From NCBI RefSeq assembly GCF_014168815.1, contig NZ_AP021972.1:4756375-4820374 (forward strand): 64,000 nucleotides of DNA, in the 5' to 3' direction. Shown here in pieces: positions 26,779-63,058 of this stretch. Numbering within the stretch: position 1 is the first letter of the stretch; every line of letters starts with the position of its first letter. A program made the translations under genes and the position numbers. The notes beneath the pieces are model-generated. The model ran no database searches. It saw nothing but the letters and a program-made list of their open reading frames with translations, and was not told where the DNA came from. The DNA comes from Klebsiella sp. WP3-W18-ESBL-02. Its GTDB lineage: Bacteria; Pseudomonadota; Gammaproteobacteria; Enterobacterales; Enterobacteriaceae.

Positions 26779-27023
26779 CGTCATCGAGTATACACAACCA
26801 AATGAATGGAATTCGGTGATGGGAAATAGGGGAAGGTTTTTTCGGAAAATATGAAAATGAAAGATAAGAAAATAAAATATCAATAAATAACAGCGTGTTA
26901 TCTATTAACTTAAGAATGGCAATATACGGTTAATCCGAAACATACATCTGGGATAGGTGATATTTAGGATTATGCTCAATATCAATATAATTCAGAAAAT
27001 TAAGATATACGGAATTATCTGAC

Positions 27024-27050
27024 AAAAAAATGCCGGCATGATGCCGGCAT
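27024..27050 (-). terminator. Rho-independent terminator of pgi
   Basis: On the minus strand the hairpin ATGCCGGCAT-C-ATGCCGGCAT is followed by TTTTTTTG. Confidence 0.8.
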
Positions 27051-27065
27051 TGAGAATATATAACC

Positions 27066-28959: not shown

Positions 28960-29160
28960 CAGGCCAGAAGAGGCGCGTTGCCCAGGTATACGGTGTTGGA
29001 GGAACCCATCCTGTGAAAACACCTGAAGGGGAGCAACGCCGAGATGGCTGAACAACAGGTTACGTTCAACATCGGCTACAGGGGCTGAATCCCCTGGGTT
29101 GTCACCAGAAGCGTTCGCAGTCGGGCGTTTCGCAAGTGGTGGAGCACTTCTGGGTGAAAT
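28960..29160 (+). ncRNA. Lysine riboswitch (L-box) in the lysC leader
   Basis: The leader ...CCAGAAGAGGCGCGTTGCCCAGGTATACGGTGTTGGAGGA...GGCTACAGGGGCTGAATCCCCTGGGTTGTCACCAGAAGCGTTCGCAGTCGGGCGTTTCGCAAGTGGTGGAGCACTTCTGGGTG is nearly identical to the E. coli lysC leader. Confidence 0.85.
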
Positions 29161-30645: not shown

Positions 30646-31431
30646 TCAGCGCATCACCGTATCATATAACAGTCTGTCCAGCGCCCGGACATCCCCTTCC
30701 CGGCTGTCTGGTAAGGTCGGTGGGATTTCTCCTCTCTCCAGTTCGCCGCGGATAAACGCATGTAACAATGGACGACGCGGACCATACTCAGCCTCACCTG
30801 ACCGCTGTTTGCGCGCCAGCAATTCGTCGATTTCCTGACGCAATGGCGCATCCAGTTCACTTCCCGCCAGCAGCTCGGCAAAACGCATTGGCGGCACGCC
30901 CTTGCCCGCTTCCACCCAACGCACCGCCAACAGGGGTCGCAGAACGTAGAAGTACTTCTTCAATCGCACGTCGTCACCCTGCAAATAACCACGGAAGTTT
31001 TTCCGCGCCATCGAGTAGTAGTGCCAGCGGGCACGTAGCGGAGAAAACCATTTGGGCACCAACGCTTTCAGCACCGACACGGTCGCGTCATCCTGCTGAT
31101 AGACCACCGGCGAATCCAGCCACTCGATAAGCGTCGGGTTTGCGCCTTTGAGTAACCCCAGCGCCTTGCGCCATTCCCAGCCGCACACGTCCAGCTCATC
31201 ATCTATCGGCAGCTCAATAACATCGCGTGGCGCTTCGATCCGCAGATACCATTCAGGGGGATGAACATAGAGAAATCGCACGTCGTAATCGCTGTCCGGC
31301 GAAGCAAATCCCCAGCCACGGCTGCCGGACTCACAGGCATACAGCACCCTGACGCCATAGCGCTGCTCAACCTCTTTTAGCTGGCGCAATACCCGTTCGC
31401 GCATTGCGCCGTCCACTGTGTTGTCGCTCAT
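30646..31431 (-). CDS. Pol-beta-superfamily nucleotidyltransferase, distal gene of the sigma54-driven operon
   Basis: The 261-aa product has the active-site motif ...YACESGSRGWGFASPDSDYDVRFLY... (GS-x9-D-x-D). Its start lies 5 nt after the SPFH gene stop. There is no HEPN partner and no E. coli K-12 counterpart. Confidence 0.6.
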   Translation of the reverse strand: MSDNTVDGAMRERVLRQLKEVEQRYGVRVLYACESGSRGWGFASPDSDYDVRFLYVHPPEWYLRIEAPRDVIELPIDDELDVCGWEWRKALGLLKGANPTLIEWLDSPVVYQQDDATVSVLKALVPKWFSPLRARWHYYSMARKNFRGYLQGDDVRLKKYFYVLRPLLAVRWVEAGKGVPPMRFAELLAGSELDAPLRQEIDELLARKQRSGEAEYGPRRPLLHAFIRGELERGEIPPTLPDSREGDVRALDRLLYDTVMR

Positions 31432-31436
31432 TATTC

Positions 31437-32564
31437 TTATCCTTTTATGTTCACAAGACCGTGCAGCACCTGATCCAGGCCCCCGAACACCGAGATTTTA
31501 TCGATGCGCTCAGCAACTCTTTCGAGGGTTTCCAGTTCTTTTAAGCGCAGCGCTACCGGGTTGTTTTCCATCACTTTTGCCGTATTTAACAGCGATCGCG
31601 TGGCGGCAGTCTCTTCACGACGTCGGATCACGTTGGCCTGGGCGGATTTTTCCGCTTCAACCAGTTGCGATAAAATAGCCTTCATATCGCCGGGCAGGAC
31701 AATATCCTTCACCCCCAGTGAAGCCACCTCAATACCAAACGGCGTCATACGGGCTTTCACCTGCGCGCTCACCACTTCATCGATCACCTGCTTATCTTCC
31801 AGCAATTCGTCCAGCGTGCGCGTTCCCACCGCTTCACGCAGCGCAAACTGCAATTCACGGTAAAGGTGATCCAGCGGTTTAGTCAGTTGACCAAATGCCA
31901 GCAACACATCGCGATAATGCCAGTTCGCCGCCAGGTTTAAACGCAGGTTGACCTTATCTTTGGTCAGTATCTCCTGGCCGCCAACCTCCAGCACCTGCAA
32001 GCGGGTATCCACTACTTCCGCTTCAATCAGATGGTTTACCTTCCAGTATGCCGTCAGACCTGGCGACAGTAATGCCTGTGTCTCACCGTCAATTTTCAGC
32101 ACACCGACGTGCCACGCCGGGACCTGCACCGTTAAGATAGCTTCGCGACCTTTCACCGCACCGCTGCGACGTGGCTGTAATACTGCGTTCATCACGTCAA
32201 CAGGAACCAAAACCTGACGTGTATCCATCCGTACCAGCTTCAGCGCTTCATCGGCCTGCCAGTACAGACGGCGCGTTGCCGGTGGCAAAATTTCCTGCAA
32301 GACGCCGTTGACATACAGCGCCGCGGCTTCGGTATCCGTTGTATCCGCGACCAGGCAGTAACGCTCCACCCAATAAGGCTGAAAGCGGCGTAAATACTCC
32401 GCTAATGCCTGCGGTACTTCGCCGCCATCCCTATTGACGATCAGCACTTCCGGGGTGCTAAACCACGGTAAACGATGCTGACCCGCTTCCAACACCTGAT
32501 AGTAATCACCCTCGCGGGATAAAAGACCTAACTGCGCTTTTTGGATAGTGATTTTCTTAGCCAT
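31437..32564 (-). CDS. SPFH/band-7 (stomatin/flotillin-like) domain protein, proximal gene of the sigma54-driven operon
   Basis: The ATG at 32564 follows an AAGGA RBS, giving MAKKITIQKAQLGLL... (375 aa). The C-terminal half has the SPFH signature ...ILTKDKVNLRLNLAANWHYRDV...GIEVASLGVKDIVLPGDMKAILSQLVEAEKSAQANVIRRREET.... No transmembrane segment is evident. The ORF track started at 32639. Confidence 0.6.
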   Translation of the reverse strand: MAKKITIQKAQLGLLSREGDYYQVLEAGQHRLPWFSTPEVLIVNRDGGEVPQALAEYLRRFQPYWVERYCLVADTTDTEAAALYVNGVLQEILPPATRRLYWQADEALKLVRMDTRQVLVPVDVMNAVLQPRRSGAVKGREAILTVQVPAWHVGVLKIDGETQALLSPGLTAYWKVNHLIEAEVVDTRLQVLEVGGQEILTKDKVNLRLNLAANWHYRDVLLAFGQLTKPLDHLYRELQFALREAVGTRTLDELLEDKQVIDEVVSAQVKARMTPFGIEVASLGVKDIVLPGDMKAILSQLVEAEKSAQANVIRRREETAATRSLLNTAKVMENNPVALRLKELETLERVAERIDKISVFGGLDQVLHGLVNIKG

Positions 32565-32728
32565 TTTATATTCCTTAATATCGTTCAGGCGCGGGTGCAG
32601 GGGCGAAGCGGCAGGGGAATTCCCTTTTGCCTGCCGCACGGCATCTTTACCGGCAGCCTGTTCTGGAGCGTGCTAACTGCACATCACTCCGCTTTATTTC
32701 TATGATTAACAACCCGTTTTCATTCGGG

Positions 32729-32763
32729 GATGAAATTGGGAATCGAACCCACTGTGTGTCATC
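32729..32763 (-). other. tRNA-like T-arm/acceptor minihelix motif in the operon leader (candidate structured RNA element)
   Basis: The minus-strand RNA is 5'-GAUGACACACAG-UGGG-UUCGAUU-CCCA-AUUUCAUC-3'. It has a canonical T-loop (UUCGAUU) on a 4-bp GGG/CCC stem, enclosed by a 5-bp GAUGA/UCAUC helix. There are no D or anticodon arms, so it is not a tRNA gene. Confidence 0.3.
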
Positions 32764-32860
32764 GGCTGACGGAACACTCCCGGAAAACAGCCTGTGCCGT
32801 TCCTGACGTGCCGGCGGGGTTTAACCCCCTGCGTTTTCAGCGTGATTGACGCAAGTGTTA

Positions 32861-32877
32861 TTGCCAGAAGCGTGCCA
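32861..32877 (-). promoter_or_regulatory. sigma54 (-24/-12) promoter driving the SPFH + nucleotidyltransferase operon
   Basis: The minus strand reads CTGGCAC-GCTTC-TGGCAA, i.e. TGGCAC-N5-TGGC with the GG and GC dinucleotides correctly spaced. It is divergent from the RtcR-like bEBP gene, and the leader to the SPFH ATG is about 285 nt. Confidence 0.55.
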
Positions 32878-33012
32878 GGAATTAAAAAAGGCATATTTAA
32901 TTTTTAATTAATTGATTTTTATAATTTTAATTATTGATGCCAATAATGACGGTTGTCTCGACGGGTTAATTTTTTTATCTTTTATTCTCTTATTTATCTT
33001 TTTGGATAAACC

Positions 33013-34593
33013 ATGAAAAAACGGCGGGTAGTGATTGGCGTACTGGGAACGGTGCTCGATAAGCGCGGCAAGCGGGCCAATCGGTTTAAGAAGTGGCGAC
33101 CCACGGTTGGGCTATGCCAACAACCCGATTTCCCTGTCGACAGGCTGGAACTCCTCCACCAGCCACGCGATGAGAGCATGGCGCAACGGTTGATTGAAGA
33201 CGTCGCGCTGCTTTCGCCGTACACCCAGGTTCGCCCGCATGCCGTCACCATTAACGATCCGTGGGACTTTGAAGAGGTCTACGCCGCGTTTCTCGACTTT
33301 GCCACGCATTATGAATTTGATACGGAAAACGAAGAGTATCTGGTGCACATCACCACCGGGACTCACGTGGCACAAATCTGCTGGTTTTTGCTGACGGAAG
33401 CCCGCTACCTGCCCGCCAGCCTGCTGCAAACCGGCCCGGCGCCACGCGGTTCATCAGATGAGGCCGTCGCCGCTGGCGTCTGCTCGGTTATCGATCTCGA
33501 TTTAAGCCGCTACGCCACGCTCACCAGTCGTTTTCAGCGCGAACAGCAGCGGTCGGTCTCTTTTCTGAAAGCCGGGATTGATACGCGCAACGCCACCTTC
33601 AATAAACTGATCGATCGCATTGAGCGGGTAGCTCTGCGTTCGACCGACCCGATCCTGCTCACCGGCCCTACCGGCGCGGGCAAATCCTTCCTCGCGAAAC
33701 GTATTTTTCAGCTACGCCAGTCGCGGCATCTGGTGGCGGGAAAACTGGTGGCGGTTAACTGCGCAACCCTGCGCGGCGACAATGCGATGTCCACGCTGTT
33801 TGGTCACGTGAAGGGAGCCTTTACCGGCGCACTCACGGCGCGCAGCGGGTTGCTGCGAGAAGCGGATGGCGGCGTGCTGTTTCTCGATGAGATAGCCGAA
33901 TTGGGGCTGGACGAGCAGGCCATGCTACTCAAAGCAATTGAAGAAAAAACCTTTTTCCCGTTTGGGTCAGACAAAGAAGTACGCAGCGATTTTCAGCTGA
34001 TTGCTGGCACCCATCGCGACATGCGGCAATGGGTATCTGAAGGCCGTTTTCGCGAGGATCTCTACGCGCGTATCAATATGTGGAGCTTCGCCCTGCCCGG
34101 TCTGGCGCAGCGGCGGGAAGATATCGCGCCGAACGTCGAGTATGAGCTGCAACGTTTCTCCAGCAGCAAACAGACGCAAATCCGTTTCGATAAAGAAGCC
34201 CGCGCTTACTATCTGGCATTTGCCTGTTCCTCACAGGCACAGTGGCGTGGCAATTTTCGCGAGCTAAGTTCATCCATCGCGCGTATGGCGACGCTTGCCG
34301 AACAAGGTCGCATCACCTTATCCCTTGTCGAAGAAGAGATTGCGCTGCTAAAGGAGAGTTGGCAGATAGCCACTCCGCAGCCTGAACTGAATATGGACAT
34401 TGACCTGTTCGATCGCCGCCAGTTAGAAACGGTACTGGAAGTGTGCCGCCGCTGCGCGTCGCTGTCGGAAGCCGGACGCGAACTGTTTGCCGTCTCGCGG
34501 CAGAAAAAAGCCAATCCCAACGATGCAGACCGCCTGCGCAAATATCTCGCTCGTTTCGGGCTAAGCTGGGAAAACCTCCGCAGCGCAACATGA
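33013..34593 (+). CDS. RtcR-like sigma54-dependent transcriptional activator with an N-terminal CARF domain and AAA+ sigma54-activation domain
   Basis: The 526-aa product is colinear with E. coli RtcR, by memory roughly 50% identity. It carries the CARF-like N-terminus ...HITTGTHVAQICWFLL..., Walker A GPTGAGKS, the sigma54-contact GAFTGA motif (GHVKGAFTGA), and a C-terminal HTH ...DADRLRKYLARFGL.... Confidence 0.8.
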   Translation: MKKRRVVIGVLGTVLDKRGKRANRFKKWRPTVGLCQQPDFPVDRLELLHQPRDESMAQRLIEDVALLSPYTQVRPHAVTINDPWDFEEVYAAFLDFATHYEFDTENEEYLVHITTGTHVAQICWFLLTEARYLPASLLQTGPAPRGSSDEAVAAGVCSVIDLDLSRYATLTSRFQREQQRSVSFLKAGIDTRNATFNKLIDRIERVALRSTDPILLTGPTGAGKSFLAKRIFQLRQSRHLVAGKLVAVNCATLRGDNAMSTLFGHVKGAFTGALTARSGLLREADGGVLFLDEIAELGLDEQAMLLKAIEEKTFFPFGSDKEVRSDFQLIAGTHRDMRQWVSEGRFREDLYARINMWSFALPGLAQRREDIAPNVEYELQRFSSSKQTQIRFDKEARAYYLAFACSSQAQWRGNFRELSSSIARMATLAEQGRITLSLVEEEIALLKESWQIATPQPELNMDIDLFDRRQLETVLEVCRRCASLSEAGRELFAVSRQKKANPNDADRLRKYLARFGLSWENLRSAT

Positions 34594-34642
34594 ACATAAT
34601 TTGTTTGAATAATATTCCATCACGCGATAAACAATAACTATA

Positions 34643-34666
34643 GCCGGGCTCGAACCCGGCTTTTTT
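34643..34666 (+). terminator. Rho-independent terminator after the RtcR-like gene
   Basis: The hairpin GCCGGG-CTCGAA-CCCGGC is followed by TTTTTT. Confidence 0.75.
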
Positions 34667-53177: not shown

Positions 53178-53297
53178 ATGCCTGGCAGTTCCCTACTCTC
53201 GCATGGGGAGACCCCACACTACCATCGGCGCTACGGCGTTTCACTTCTGAGTTCGGCATGGGGTCAGGTGGGACCACCGCGCTACGGCCGCCAGGCA
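53178..53297 (-). rRNA. rrfB: 5S ribosomal RNA
   Basis: The 120-nt minus-strand sequence TGCCTGGCGGCCGTAGCGCGGTGGTCCCACCTGACCCCATGCCGAACTCAGAAGTGAAACGCCGTAGCGCCGATGGTAGTGTGGGGTCTCCCCATGCGAGAGTAGGGAACTGCCAGGCAT matches enterobacterial 5S rRNA. Confidence 0.95.
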
Positions 53298-53389
53298 AAT
53301 TCTGTATTAACCCGCTTTTCGCCGGTCAATGTAATCTGTAATCAATGCTGAAAATCGTCTCAATTTCGCCAAAACATCTTCGGCGTTGT

Positions 53390-56296
<2,907 letters not shown>

Positions 56297-56515
56297 TCAC
56301 AACCCGAAGATGTTTCGTAAAACACCATCGTGTTGCGAAAATTTGAGAGACTCGAACACACCGCTTATCTGTTCTTATTACGGAGAACAGACACAGTGTG
56401 TCGTTTCAATTTTCAGCTTGATCCAGATTTTTAAAGAGCAAATATCTCAAACAAGACTCGGAAGTCTGTTTTGAGATACTAAGGTCGGCGACTTTCACTC
56501 ACACTAACCAGCAAG

Positions 56516-56591
56516 TGGCGTCCCCTAGGGGATTCGAACCCCTGTTACCGCCGTGAAAGGGCGGTGTCCTGGGCCTCTAGACGAAGGGGAC
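56516..56591 (-). tRNA. gltT: tRNA-Glu (UUC) in the 16S-23S spacer
   Basis: The minus-strand sequence GTCCCCTTCGTCTAGAGGCCCAGGACACCGCCCTTTCACGGCGGTAACAGGGGTTCGAATCCCCTAGGGGACGCCA is identical to E. coli tRNA-Glu and includes the encoded CCA. Confidence 0.95.
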
Positions 56592-56676
56592 ACTGAAGTC
56601 TCAATCGCAAGACGCCTTGCTATTTACTTTTCATCAGACAATCTGTGTGAGCACTTCAAAGAACGCTTCTTTAAGG

Positions 56677-58216
<1,540 letters not shown>

Positions 58217-61733: not shown

Positions 61734-63058
61734 CGGCTGAGCTTAGCCAGCAGCGTTTTGCGCGTAATACCTAACTGACGGGCGGCTTCGGTTTTATTGC
61801 CGCCCGTTTTTTCCAGCGCCGCCAGAATCACCTCTTTTTCAACTTCCACCAGCGGCTGAATGACGTCATCAGCCGATGAGCATGCCGGAACCGGCGTCCC
61901 GACAATCGCCAGCGGCAGCTCGCGCTCAGAAATATACTCTCCCGTCAGCAGCACAACCGCCCGCTCCACCGCGTTTTCCAGCTCGCGGATATTTCCCGGC
62001 CAGTCATAGTGAATCAACAAATCCATCGCCTGCGGGGTAAAGCCCTGTACCGACTTACGGTTTCGTTCGCCGTAGCGCCGCAGAAAATGATGTGCCAGCT
62101 GAGGAATATCCTCACGGCGCTGGCGCAGCGGCGGCATCTCGATGGCGACCACGTTCAGGCGGTAGTAGAGATCTTGGCGAAAGCGCCCGGCATTCACCTC
62201 TTCAGCCAGGTCTCGATGGGTAGCGGCAATCAGCCGTACATCGACGGAAAGGGTCTGATTGCTGCCAACGCGCTGCACCTCACGCTCCTGGATAACCCGC
62301 AGCAGGCGCACCTGCATCAGCGGCGAAATATCGCCAATCTCATCAAGAAACAGCGTGCCACCGTCGGCTTCGACAAAACGCCCTTCCCGGCGTTTATCAG
62401 CGCCGGTAAATGCGCCCTTCTCGTGGCCAAACAGTTCCGATTCCAGCAGCGACTCATTGAGCGCCGCGCAGTTCAGCGTCACCAGCGGCTTATCGCCGCG
62501 CAGGCTGAGGGCATGCAGCGCGCGCGCCACCAGCTCTTTACCGGTGCCCGATTCGCCGTGAATGAGCACCGTCGCATCCGACGGCGCCACCAGCGCAATA
62601 TTGTGTAACAGCGCCCGCATGGCCGGGCTATCGCCCACCATGCCAGACTGCGGCGCAGATTCCACCGCCGCGCTTTCCGGCTGGCGTGTGTGTGCTAAAG
62701 CCGCTACCAGCGTCTGCTGCAGGCTATCGAAATCGAGCGGTTTCACCAGGTAATCCAGCGCACCGGACTTGAGCGCCTCAACCGCTGTCCCCACGCTAGA
62801 GTAGGCGGTCATGATCAGCACCGGAATCGACGGGTTGTAGGCTTTAATCTCTTTCAGCGTTTCAATGCCGTCCATTTCCGCCATGCGGATGTCGCAGAGC
62901 ACCAGATCGAACACCCGCTCGCGTACCTGTTCCAACGCCTGTCGCCCGTTATGGGCCAGCGACACTTCACATCCCCAGCCCCGCAGCAGCGCCTGTAAGA
63001 TTGTGCAGTGACTGGTGTCGTCATCGACCACCAGAATCGTCACATTCTCTGCCGTCAT
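61730..63058 (-). CDS. zraR: sigma54-dependent response regulator ZraR (HydG)
   Basis: The 442-aa product has a receiver domain, AAA+ region (GESGTGKE, GAFTGA) and C-terminal HTH, near-identical to E. coli ZraR. Its 3' end overlaps purD by 4 nt. Confidence 0.93.
   Translation of the reverse strand: MTAENVTILVVDDDTSHCTILQALLRGWGCEVSLAHNGRQALEQVRERVFDLVLCDIRMAEMDGIETLKEIKAYNPSIPVLIMTAYSSVGTAVEALKSGALDYLVKPLDFDSLQQTLVAALAHTRQPESAAVESAPQSGMVGDSPAMRALLHNIALVAPSDATVLIHGESGTGKELVARALHALSLRGDKPLVTLNCAALNESLLESELFGHEKGAFTGADKRREGRFVEADGGTLFLDEIGDISPLMQVRLLRVIQEREVQRVGSNQTLSVDVRLIAATHRDLAEEVNAGRFRQDLYYRLNVVAIEMPPLRQRREDIPQLAHHFLRRYGERNRKSVQGFTPQAMDLLIHYDWPGNIRELENAVERAVVLLTGEYISERELPLAIVGTPVPACSSADDVIQPLVEVEKEVILAALEKTGGNKTEAARQLGITRKTLLAKLSR

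Follow-up and report, generated by a model that had tools for sequence, protein, structure and literature searches.

An rtcB-less SPFH–RlaP operon divergent from rtcR, with a degenerate tRNA-like leader RNA: a probable RNA end-healing module

Results and Discussion

We analysed an operon in a 64,000-nucleotide stretch of Klebsiella sp. WP3-W18-ESBL-02 (contig NZ_AP021972.1, positions 4,756,375 to 4,820,374 of the forward strand; hereafter the window), in which rtcR lies divergent from a gene pair encoding a soluble SPFH/stomatin-like ("slipin") protein and the RNA 3'-nucleotidyltransferase RlaP. The locus descends from an rtcB-containing operon from which rtcB was cleanly deleted between the SPFH gene and rlaP, and the genes left behind stay under purifying selection. 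We consider it probable (roughly 70%) that the window carries the Citrobacter freundii-complex version of the RtcR-controlled RNA-repair operon minus rtcB, and that this operon is an RNA end-healing module whose ligase would be supplied in trans.

Loss of rtcB from the operon

The gene set consisted of three intact reading frames and a 448-nt divergent intergenic region (Table 1). By tblastn, no RtcB or RtcA homologue was found in the whole 64-kb window, as a first-pass annotation of the letters alone had stated. That annotation had also excluded Rsr, for which no sequence search was made; the operon leaves no space for rsr, because its end is bounded by the convergent lysC gene.

For comparison, one genome per species was scanned for the SPFH protein, and the best 80 loci were kept. 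All 80 shared one layout. A divergent rtcR was present in 78 of them (partial in five), the remaining two being L018, which has no rtcR, and L029, which lies on a 2.7-kb contig. RtcB (405–424 aa; PF01139, E about 1e-131) was encoded between SPFH and RlaP, or after SPFH, in 57 of the 80 loci, and in such loci the SPFH, RtcB and RlaP genes were closely packed in one operon. The SPFH gene was followed directly by rlaP, as in the window, in 21. Pseudomonas loci added genes for a zinc-finger protein, a HEAT protein and RtcA. The converse reduction, SPFH and RtcB without RlaP, was seen in Proteus (L049–L064) and in L069, L071, L074, L076, L079 and L080; such loci indicate that RtcB and RlaP are each dispensable and separable, while the SPFH gene and the leader RNA described below are constant.

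Citrobacter and Enterobacter loci that contain rtcB occupied the same lysC site as the window. In Citrobacter sp. ANG330 (L007), C. amalonaticus ku-bf3 (L040) and Enterobacter (L013), the RtcR, SPFH and RlaP proteins were 83–90% identical to those of the window, with the same promoter, leader RNA and chromosomal position; however, a gene for a 408-aa RtcB stood between SPFH and RlaP where the window has one AAAGGATAA junction copy instead. In the rtcB-containing relatives L007, L013 and L015, the SPFH gene and rtcB both ended in ...AAAGGATAA, followed by 4–6 nt and then ATG, while rtcB of L040 ended in AAAGGATGA instead. A single copy of this sequence is the remnant expected from a deletion between 9-nt direct repeats, and the junction suggests that rtcB was removed by such a deletion.

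On a simple neighbour-joining tree of RtcR and SPFH, rtcB-less loci fell in at least five separate places, represented by a Citrobacter/K. oxytoca-group/Kluyvera clade (which includes the window), Pseudocitrobacter, Superficieibacter, Mangrovibacter, Hafnia, and Brenneria/Lonsdalea. The junctions differed among the rtcB-less loci, and rtcB appears to have been lost independently at least five times.

The genes that remained after these losses were not drifting. Pairwise Nei–Gojobori ratios of nonsynonymous to synonymous substitution (dN/dS) within rtcB-less clades were 0.04–0.17 for RtcR, 0.05–0.09 for SPFH and 0.03–0.2 for RlaP at dS up to 1–1.8; values at dS above 1 are saturated, and less diverged pairs agreed. 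These ratios were indistinguishable from those of rtcB-containing loci (0.03–0.14), and RtcR, SPFH and RlaP therefore remain under purifying selection after rtcB loss. An operon made non-functional by the loss of rtcB and on its way to becoming pseudogenes would account for the decayed relatives, among which RtcR is truncated to 328 aa (L004), rtcR is missing (L018, and the E. coli copies described below) or SPFH is truncated and RlaP absent (L026, C. murliniae). Yet the window, like most of the other loci, is free of such decay. Its frames were intact, dN/dS within rtcB-less clades stayed at 0.03–0.2 even where dS reached 1 or more, the catalytic residues of RlaP were invariant, promoter and RNA structure were conserved with compensatory changes, and the module was kept in about 30% of E. 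coli genomes. We rejected such a pseudogene remnant, which we regard as very improbable, on the strength of the purifying dN/dS among window relatives and in E. coli together with the invariant RlaP residues.

The three proteins

The RtcR assignment was secure. Its N-terminal domain matched PF06956 (RtcR/CARF-like; residues 3–188, E 1.1e-80), its AAA+ region matched Sigma54_activat (PF00158, E 3.7e-48) with AAA_lid_14 also matched, and GAFTGA was seen in the translation. The protein scored 820.7 bits (cut-off 650) with NF038308, the NCBIfam equivalog model for "RNA repair transcriptional activator RtcR", over positions 2–528 of 530, and it was 62% identical to Escherichia coli K-12 RtcR over the full length including the C-terminus (alignment up to residue 520). 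Assembly GCA_015930025.1 encodes an RtcR identical to that of the window. Profile searches and the K-12 alignment agreed with the earlier description of an RtcR homolog with a CARF-like domain, a GAFTGA-bearing AAA+ region and a C-terminal helix-turn-helix.

The SPFH coding sequence starts at the ATG at 32564, behind a Shine-Dalgarno sequence AAGGAA at 32571–32576. A 400-aa GTG frame in the list of open reading frames was rejected as the SPFH gene, since this ATG with its Shine-Dalgarno sequence and the database annotations both give 375 aa. A Band_7 domain (PF01145) was matched at residues 148–319 (E 1e-24), similarity to HflK/HflC was weak, and there was no membrane segment, the maximum Kyte–Doolittle 19-residue mean being 1.08. 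An AlphaFold2 monomer model (predicted local distance difference test score 82) placed about 180 N-terminal residues in beta-rich repeats, followed by a stomatin-type SPFH domain and a long C-terminal helix, and the protein probably assembles into a ring- or cage-shaped oligomer. A longer version of the protein, of about 510–560 aa with about 150 extra N-terminal residues (loci L067–L076, L079 and L080; proteins P0121–P0162), was found in Xenorhabdus, some Providencia, Neisseria, Gilliamella, Orbus and Snodgrassella.

These data upheld the prediction of a soluble SPFH/band-7 protein; the further description of it as a membrane-microdomain-type scaffold conflicts with the lack of a membrane anchor. 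A classical microdomain role unrelated to RNA, such as protease regulation or raft organisation, could draw on the Band_7 domain and the weak HflK/HflC similarity, but the protein has no membrane segment, the operon holds no NfeD or FtsH partner, and the SPFH gene always stands within the rtc operon behind a tRNA-like RNA. We consider such a role extremely improbable.

The nucleotidyltransferase matched RlaP (PF10127) over all 249 profile positions (1–249, E 5.6e-96), and its Pol-beta residues G36, S37, D46, D48 and D81 were invariant in 62 sequences. Coordinates and the PF10127 match agreed with the first description of a 261-aa Pol-beta-fold nucleotidyltransferase 5 nt downstream of the SPFH gene. 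Assignment to the CD-NTase/SMODS, MNT or AbiEii type was rejected, as Pfam gave RlaP alone; no sequence match to RlaP was found in the PDB. The name RlaP refers to the linkage of its gene with RNA ligase genes. Such linkage was seen in 41 of the 63 related loci that encode RlaP and is missing in the window.

This nucleotidyltransferase is therefore not an unclassified enzyme, and RlaP has been characterised biochemically. Pseudomonas RlaPs were reported in December 2025 to add one or two nucleoside monophosphates (or deoxynucleoside monophosphates) to RNA 3'-OH ends, preferring Mn2+ and favouring the 5' half of nicked tRNA, and to partly restore aminoacylation of a tRNA missing one anticodon-loop nucleotide (bioRxiv 10.64898/2025.12.29.696909). 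The window RlaP would be expected to carry out RNA 3'-nucleotidyl transfer as well.

Promoter and upstream control region

A divergent sigma54 promoter, predicted at about 32861–32877 in the first-pass annotation, was located at 32862–32877. It was the single match to the sigma54-type pattern in 64 kb, where 0.05 were expected by chance, and 77 of 78 related intergenic regions keep the pattern in the corresponding position. The putative upstream activating sequence (UAS) of RtcR consisted of blocks that were conserved in an alignment of 32 intergenic regions, with at least two half-sites in 60 of the 78 loci; a similar TATCC...GATAT motif lies upstream of rtcBA in E. coli K-12. An IHF-like site recurred at the same distance of 39–43 nt in 39 of the 78 loci, and the window version, AATCAATTAATTA, fits the IHF consensus, WATCAANNNNTTR. 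Together, the promoter, the IHF-like site and the repeats make up the standard layout of an enhancer-dependent promoter, and the motifs suggest that RtcR would bind at the GATAA repeats and IHF at its putative site.

A degenerate tRNA-like leader RNA

The SPFH start lies about 300 nt from the promoter, and the region between them contains a tRNA T-arm, GGGTTCGATTCCC, within a structured leader of about 140 nt that was absent from the first reading of the locus. The motif GGTTCGAnTCC occurred 110–200 nt (mostly 110–150 nt) downstream of the promoter in 75 of the 78 loci. RNAalifold on 33 leaders gave a consensus of 26 pairs, with compensatory changes in 23. Paired cells in the alignment amounted to 93.5%, against 42–52% when the partners were slid, and the covariation score was 0.543, against 0.10–0.15 in controls, a value that none of 500 shuffles reached. 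The single-sequence fold of the whole leader was rejected as evidence of structure (z = -1.5, not distinctive), so that the structure came out only by comparative analysis.

A covariance model, R1, was built from the leader alignment and was run also on loci outside the building set. It gave one match per locus, always in the leader, with 116 bits for the window and 87.5–94 bits for E. coli copies of the module. The model found no match in the E. coli K-12 rtc locus, and in Pseudomonas its H1/H2 part matched weakly, upstream of the tRNA-like genes. The H1/H2 domain was also seen as a separate conserved unit (window 32770–32832, minus strand; L077 7524–7585; L078 2119–2297).

More distantly related loci have, at the homologous position, tRNA-like genes that scored above the Rfam tRNA threshold and were also called by ARAGORN: 68.3 bits in Neisseria sp., 62.4 in Orbus, and 52.4 and 43.8 in Pseudomonas, where they occur in tandem pairs. 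The best Rfam tRNA match of the window leader was tRNA-Sec at 17.6 bits (E 0.39), below the threshold of 47, and no tRNA or Y-RNA stood above threshold there in Rfam searches (E<=1 on 5 kb, E<=10 on 231 nt) or in ARAGORN; nor did Rfam report a Y-RNA or other relevant family at the locus. No Rfam tRNA match was obtained in four intermediate enterobacterial loci. Because neither program returned a tRNA, the leader is not recognisable as one in the Enterobacterales.

Inspection of the alignments by eye indicated which parts had gone. Leaders of the window clade have no 5' acceptor strand, D arm or anticodon arm, while Kosakonia, Erwinia and others keep an acceptor-like stem (GCGAA...UUCGC) and an ACC tail. 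The strand of the 3' hairpin in the window corresponds to the acceptor 3' strand in relatives, and the hairpin varies across the alignments as UUUCAU/AUGAAA, UCACU/AGUGA or UCACC/GGUGA. In the window clade, the strand that follows the T-arm on its 3' side forms a covarying hairpin by pairing downstream, and in Kosakonia, Erwinia and others upstream acceptor-like pairing is possible for it; Superficieibacter (L022) has both pairing partners, so alternative folds are possible. By position, T-arm and comparison with these relatives, the window leader appears to derive from the "band 7-associated tRNA" predicted by Burroughs and Aravind (2016), as described in a 2018 preprint (bioRxiv 10.1101/312249). 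According to that preprint, this RNA had never been confirmed by experiment, and no report of later validation was found in the literature.

Copies of the module in E. coli

In 1643 of 5426 complete E. coli genomes (about 30%), a leader–SPFH–RlaP unit occupies the yjbD–lysC interval, and adjacent rtcR and rtcB genes are missing; loci L085–L089 are examples (e.g., NZ_CP104371.1, 3294398–3296322). A megablast search of E. coli with the window locus gave no match because of divergence, and the copies surfaced through a protein match (P0214) and a second search. The first-pass statement that none of these genes exists at this junction in E. coli K-12 was correct for K-12, which lacks them; in the 1643 genomes the same site is occupied by SPFH–RlaP.

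Besides the adjacent rtcR, an SBF-family transporter gene has been lost in the E. coli copies. They keep the GATAA repeats of the UAS, the sigma54 promoter and the leader RNA, and their SPFH and RlaP genes had dN/dS of 0.03–0.08. Judged by this arrangement, the E. coli copy is apparently an orphan RtcR-type promoter unit. The canonical rtcA–rtcB–rtcR region was matched in 5425 of the 5426 genomes (at least 80% covered in 4838), and by counting at least 1037 genomes have both the module and the canonical region. The maintenance of a ligase-less, regulator-less module alongside canonical Rtc offers the best available support for RtcR and RtcB acting on it in trans. Immediately downstream of RlaP, between RlaP and lysC, a Zeta_toxin-family gene was observed in L085 (7958–8887, minus strand) and P2-like phage tail genes in L089 (7467–12391).

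Proposed function and alternatives

Taken together, the evidence suggested the following working for the operon. Through its CARF-like domain, RtcR would detect RNA damage; in Salmonella, the signal for RtcR is tRNA fragments whose ends bear a 2',3'-cyclic phosphate (PMC7790460), and the damage signal in Citrobacter may be of this kind. RtcR on the GATAA repeats beside its own start codon, helped by an IHF-type bend, would then switch on the sigma54 promoter. The resulting transcript would carry the structured RNA (H1, H2 and T-arm) first, followed by SPFH and RlaP. RlaP would heal or extend 3'-OH ends, and the soluble stomatin-like protein and the leader RNA would most likely interact as a scaffold or cofactor. 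Healed ends would be sealed by a ligase encoded elsewhere, as may occur in E. coli, where the module coexists with canonical rtcR–rtcBA.

Several points weigh against this proposal. No RtcB, RtcA or other ligase was found in the 64-kb window, and a ligase acting in trans in this genome is what we infer; a literature search on rtcB in Citrobacter gave nothing useful. In E. coli, RtcA and RtcB are reportedly necessary for RtcR activation (PMC9650030), which would be a difficulty if the genome has neither. The authors of the RlaP preprint noted that its 3'-OH product is not an RtcB substrate (bioRxiv 10.64898/2025.12.29.696909), and because RtcB cannot join a 3'-OH end, the functional coupling of RlaP and RtcB is in question even in full operons. 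The tRNA-like cloverleaf is lost in the window leader. On deletion of paFlo8, the P. aeruginosa SPFH gene, no phenotype was seen in assays of growth, virulence factors, motility, biofilm or oxidative stress (PMC13086221). Finally, nothing in our account is experimental; it is computational throughout, and from it we infer the transcription start, the UAS, the IHF site, RNA processing, SPFH–RNA binding and the trans ligase.

Alternatively, the module could be autonomous, with SPFH, leader RNA and RlaP doing a job that never needs RtcB, for example tailing or marking damaged ends, restoring 3'-terminal nucleotides, or keeping damaged tRNA inside an SPFH cage, where the tRNA-like leader would serve as bait or primer. 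The apparent loss of rtcB at least five times, with the remainder under purifying selection, agrees with autonomy, as do the unsuitability of RlaP products for RtcB and the state of Proteus, which keeps SPFH–RtcB and loses RlaP, so that RtcB and RlaP are separable. However, 57 of the 80 loci have all three genes in a single operon with translationally tight spacing, and the ligase-less copy in E. coli nearly always coexists with rtcBA, to which redundancy fits equally. We regard an autonomous module as unlikely, though it is the main rival.

A further reading, which we put forward tentatively and do not favour, holds that the constant core is the soluble SPFH protein with its tRNA-derived leader RNA, that RtcB and RlaP are interchangeable add-ons, and that the ligase-less version is a self-sufficient RNA-damage response. 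If true, this self-sufficient version would be present in Citrobacter, the Klebsiella oxytoca group, Hafnia, Brenneria and about 30% of E. coli, possibly as a ribonucleoprotein cage, similar to a vault, in which broken tRNAs are caught while RlaP extends or marks their 3' ends. The natural role of RlaP would then not be end preparation for RtcB, and the orphan module of E. coli would be an unrecognised second target of canonical RtcR.

The first-pass annotation had viewed the locus as a signal-activated stress or defence module. Induction by RNA damage survived as an idea; for defence no evidence was obtained. An anti-phage or abortive-infection module, with a CARF-sensed signal, a nucleotidyltransferase effector and an SPFH scaffold, could be argued from the control of some defence systems by RtcR-like CARF regulators (CoCoNuTs, PMC11090510), from the match of the PADLOC RtcR model to the window RtcR, and from the place of RNA repair in conflicts with ribotoxins and phage-triggered anticodon nucleases. 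PADLOC nevertheless matched only the regulator and neither SPFH nor RlaP, the nucleotidyltransferase is RlaP and not a CD-NTase or SMODS enzyme, the G+C content of the locus resembles that of its flanks, the lysC site is fixed across genera, and the operon has no toxin-like effector. A defence role is thus improbable, and we retain RNA end-healing with a trans-acting ligase as the preferred reading.

Relation to known systems

The kind of system described here is already published, through the work of Burroughs and Aravind (2016), the genomic context of PaFlo8 and the enzymology of RlaP. The extended rtc operon of Pseudomonas comprises rtcR divergent from a tRNA-like RNA, the SPFH protein PaFlo8, a zinc-finger protein, RtcB, in some cases a HEAT protein, RlaP and RtcA; PaFlo8 was placed inside the P. 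aeruginosa rtc locus (PMC13086221), and Pf/PaRlaP between rtcB and rtcA (bioRxiv 10.64898/2025.12.29.696909). It shares with the window the RtcR type, the sigma54 promoter and the tRNA-like leader, and the SPFH and RlaP proteins are 58% and 57–58% identical, respectively. In contrast to the Pseudomonas operon, the window lacks genes for RtcB, RtcA and the zinc-finger and HEAT proteins, and the cloverleaf of its leader is lost. The two genes that had been presented as different effectors of an RtcR-like activator are SPFH and RlaP of the known extended rtc operon minus rtcB.

A computational system of Band-7, b7a-tRNA, RtcB and RlaP under RtcR was described by Burroughs and Aravind (Nucleic Acids Res 2016), as summarised in bioRxiv 10.1101/312249. 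Its parts and the way they are predicted to work together (a scaffold paired with its own tRNA-like RNA, a nucleotidyltransferase, a ligase and RtcR) are the same as those of the window, but in the window the ligase is missing and the tRNA-like RNA is degenerate. The rtcR–rtcBA operon of E. coli K-12 and rsr–yrlBA–rtcBA of Salmonella resemble the window in divergent RtcR/sigma54 control and a similar UAS motif, and the Salmonella operon also encodes tRNA-like RNAs (YrlA; PMC7790460, PMC4201824). Both differ from it in having RtcB and RtcA (and Rsr) and no SPFH or RlaP, and the K-12 leader is short. The yjbD–lysC module of E. coli is like the window in site, leader RNA, rtcB-less SPFH–RlaP pair and purifying selection, but has no adjacent rtcR, whereas the window keeps its own.

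Against this background, the variant without a ligase may be new, as may its repeated origin and the selection that maintains it. The high frequency with which E. coli carries the module as an orphan unit with an RtcR-type promoter may likewise be new, as may the covariation-supported architecture of the enterobacterial leader, including H1/H2 upstream of the tRNA-like part. Some of these points are possibly already contained in Burroughs and Aravind (2016).

Features of the window

Coordinates of the operon features are collected in Table 1. Elsewhere in the window, a lysine riboswitch lies upstream of lysC (28960–29157, plus strand; Rfam RF00168, 97.9 bits), and the enterobacterial small RNA STnc430, which L007 has as well, adjoins pgi (26911–27061, plus strand; 70.7 bits). 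A complete rrn operon (16S, tRNA-Glu, 23S, 5S) occupies 53180–58216 on the minus strand, with a StyR-44 match in its spacer. A second sigma54-type activator at 61949–62818 (minus strand) was 34% identical to RtcR over the AAA+ domain.

Table 1. Positions in the window of the rtcR–SPFH–rlaP genes and of their predicted control and RNA elements.
Feature	Position	Strand	Remarks
rtcR	33013-34593	+	526 aa; CARF-like sensor, AAA+ sigma54-activator region (GAFTGA), C-terminal DNA-binding region
Terminator-like hairpin with T-run, 3' of rtcR	34642-34661	+	candidate from consensus scan
Putative RtcR UAS	32975-33009		TTATCC-N5-GATAA inverted repeat plus third GATAA; abuts rtcR start
IHF-like site AATCAATTAATTA	32905-32917	-	in AT-rich stretch, about 40 nt upstream of -24 element
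sigma54 promoter TGGCACgcttcTGGCA	32862-32877	-	-24 GG / -12 GC; TGGCAC-N5-TGGCA pattern
Structured leader RNA, degenerate band-7-associated tRNA element	32718-32856	-	about 140 nt; covariation
Leader hairpin H1	32814-32832	-	GCAGGGG-GUUAAA-CCCCGC; 6/6 pairs covary
Leader hairpin H2	32770-32813	-	long, irregular; compensatory changes in 15/16 pairs
tRNA-type T-arm, b7a-tRNA remnant	32737-32751	-	UGGG-UUCGAUU-CCCA; motif and position
3' hairpin	32718-32735	-	UUUCAU-CCCCGA-AUGAAA; read by eye from alignments
SPFH/stomatin-like (slipin) gene	31437-32564	-	375 aa; soluble
Junction of missing rtcB, AAAGGATAA	31437-31445	-	9 nt at SPFH stop; single copy
rlaP	30646-31431	-	261 aa; Pol-beta-superfamily RNA 3'-nucleotidyltransferase; start 5 nt after SPFH stop

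Implications

The practical value of these findings is modest, as thousands of genomes already annotate a "slipin family protein" and a "nucleotidyltransferase domain-containing protein" and the system type is published. For the biology of RNA repair, the rtcB-less operons allow tests, in easy organisms, of what the stomatin-like protein associated with rtc and its tRNA-like RNA do. The recurrent loss of rtcB with RlaP kept argues that the coupling between RlaP and RtcB is loose, and whether RlaP, which makes 3'-OH ends, works with RtcB, which needs a 3'-phosphate, becomes testable as well. By carrying an orphan RtcR-type sigma54 promoter on the module, natural E. coli strains also allow the RtcR regulon beyond rtcBA to be tested.

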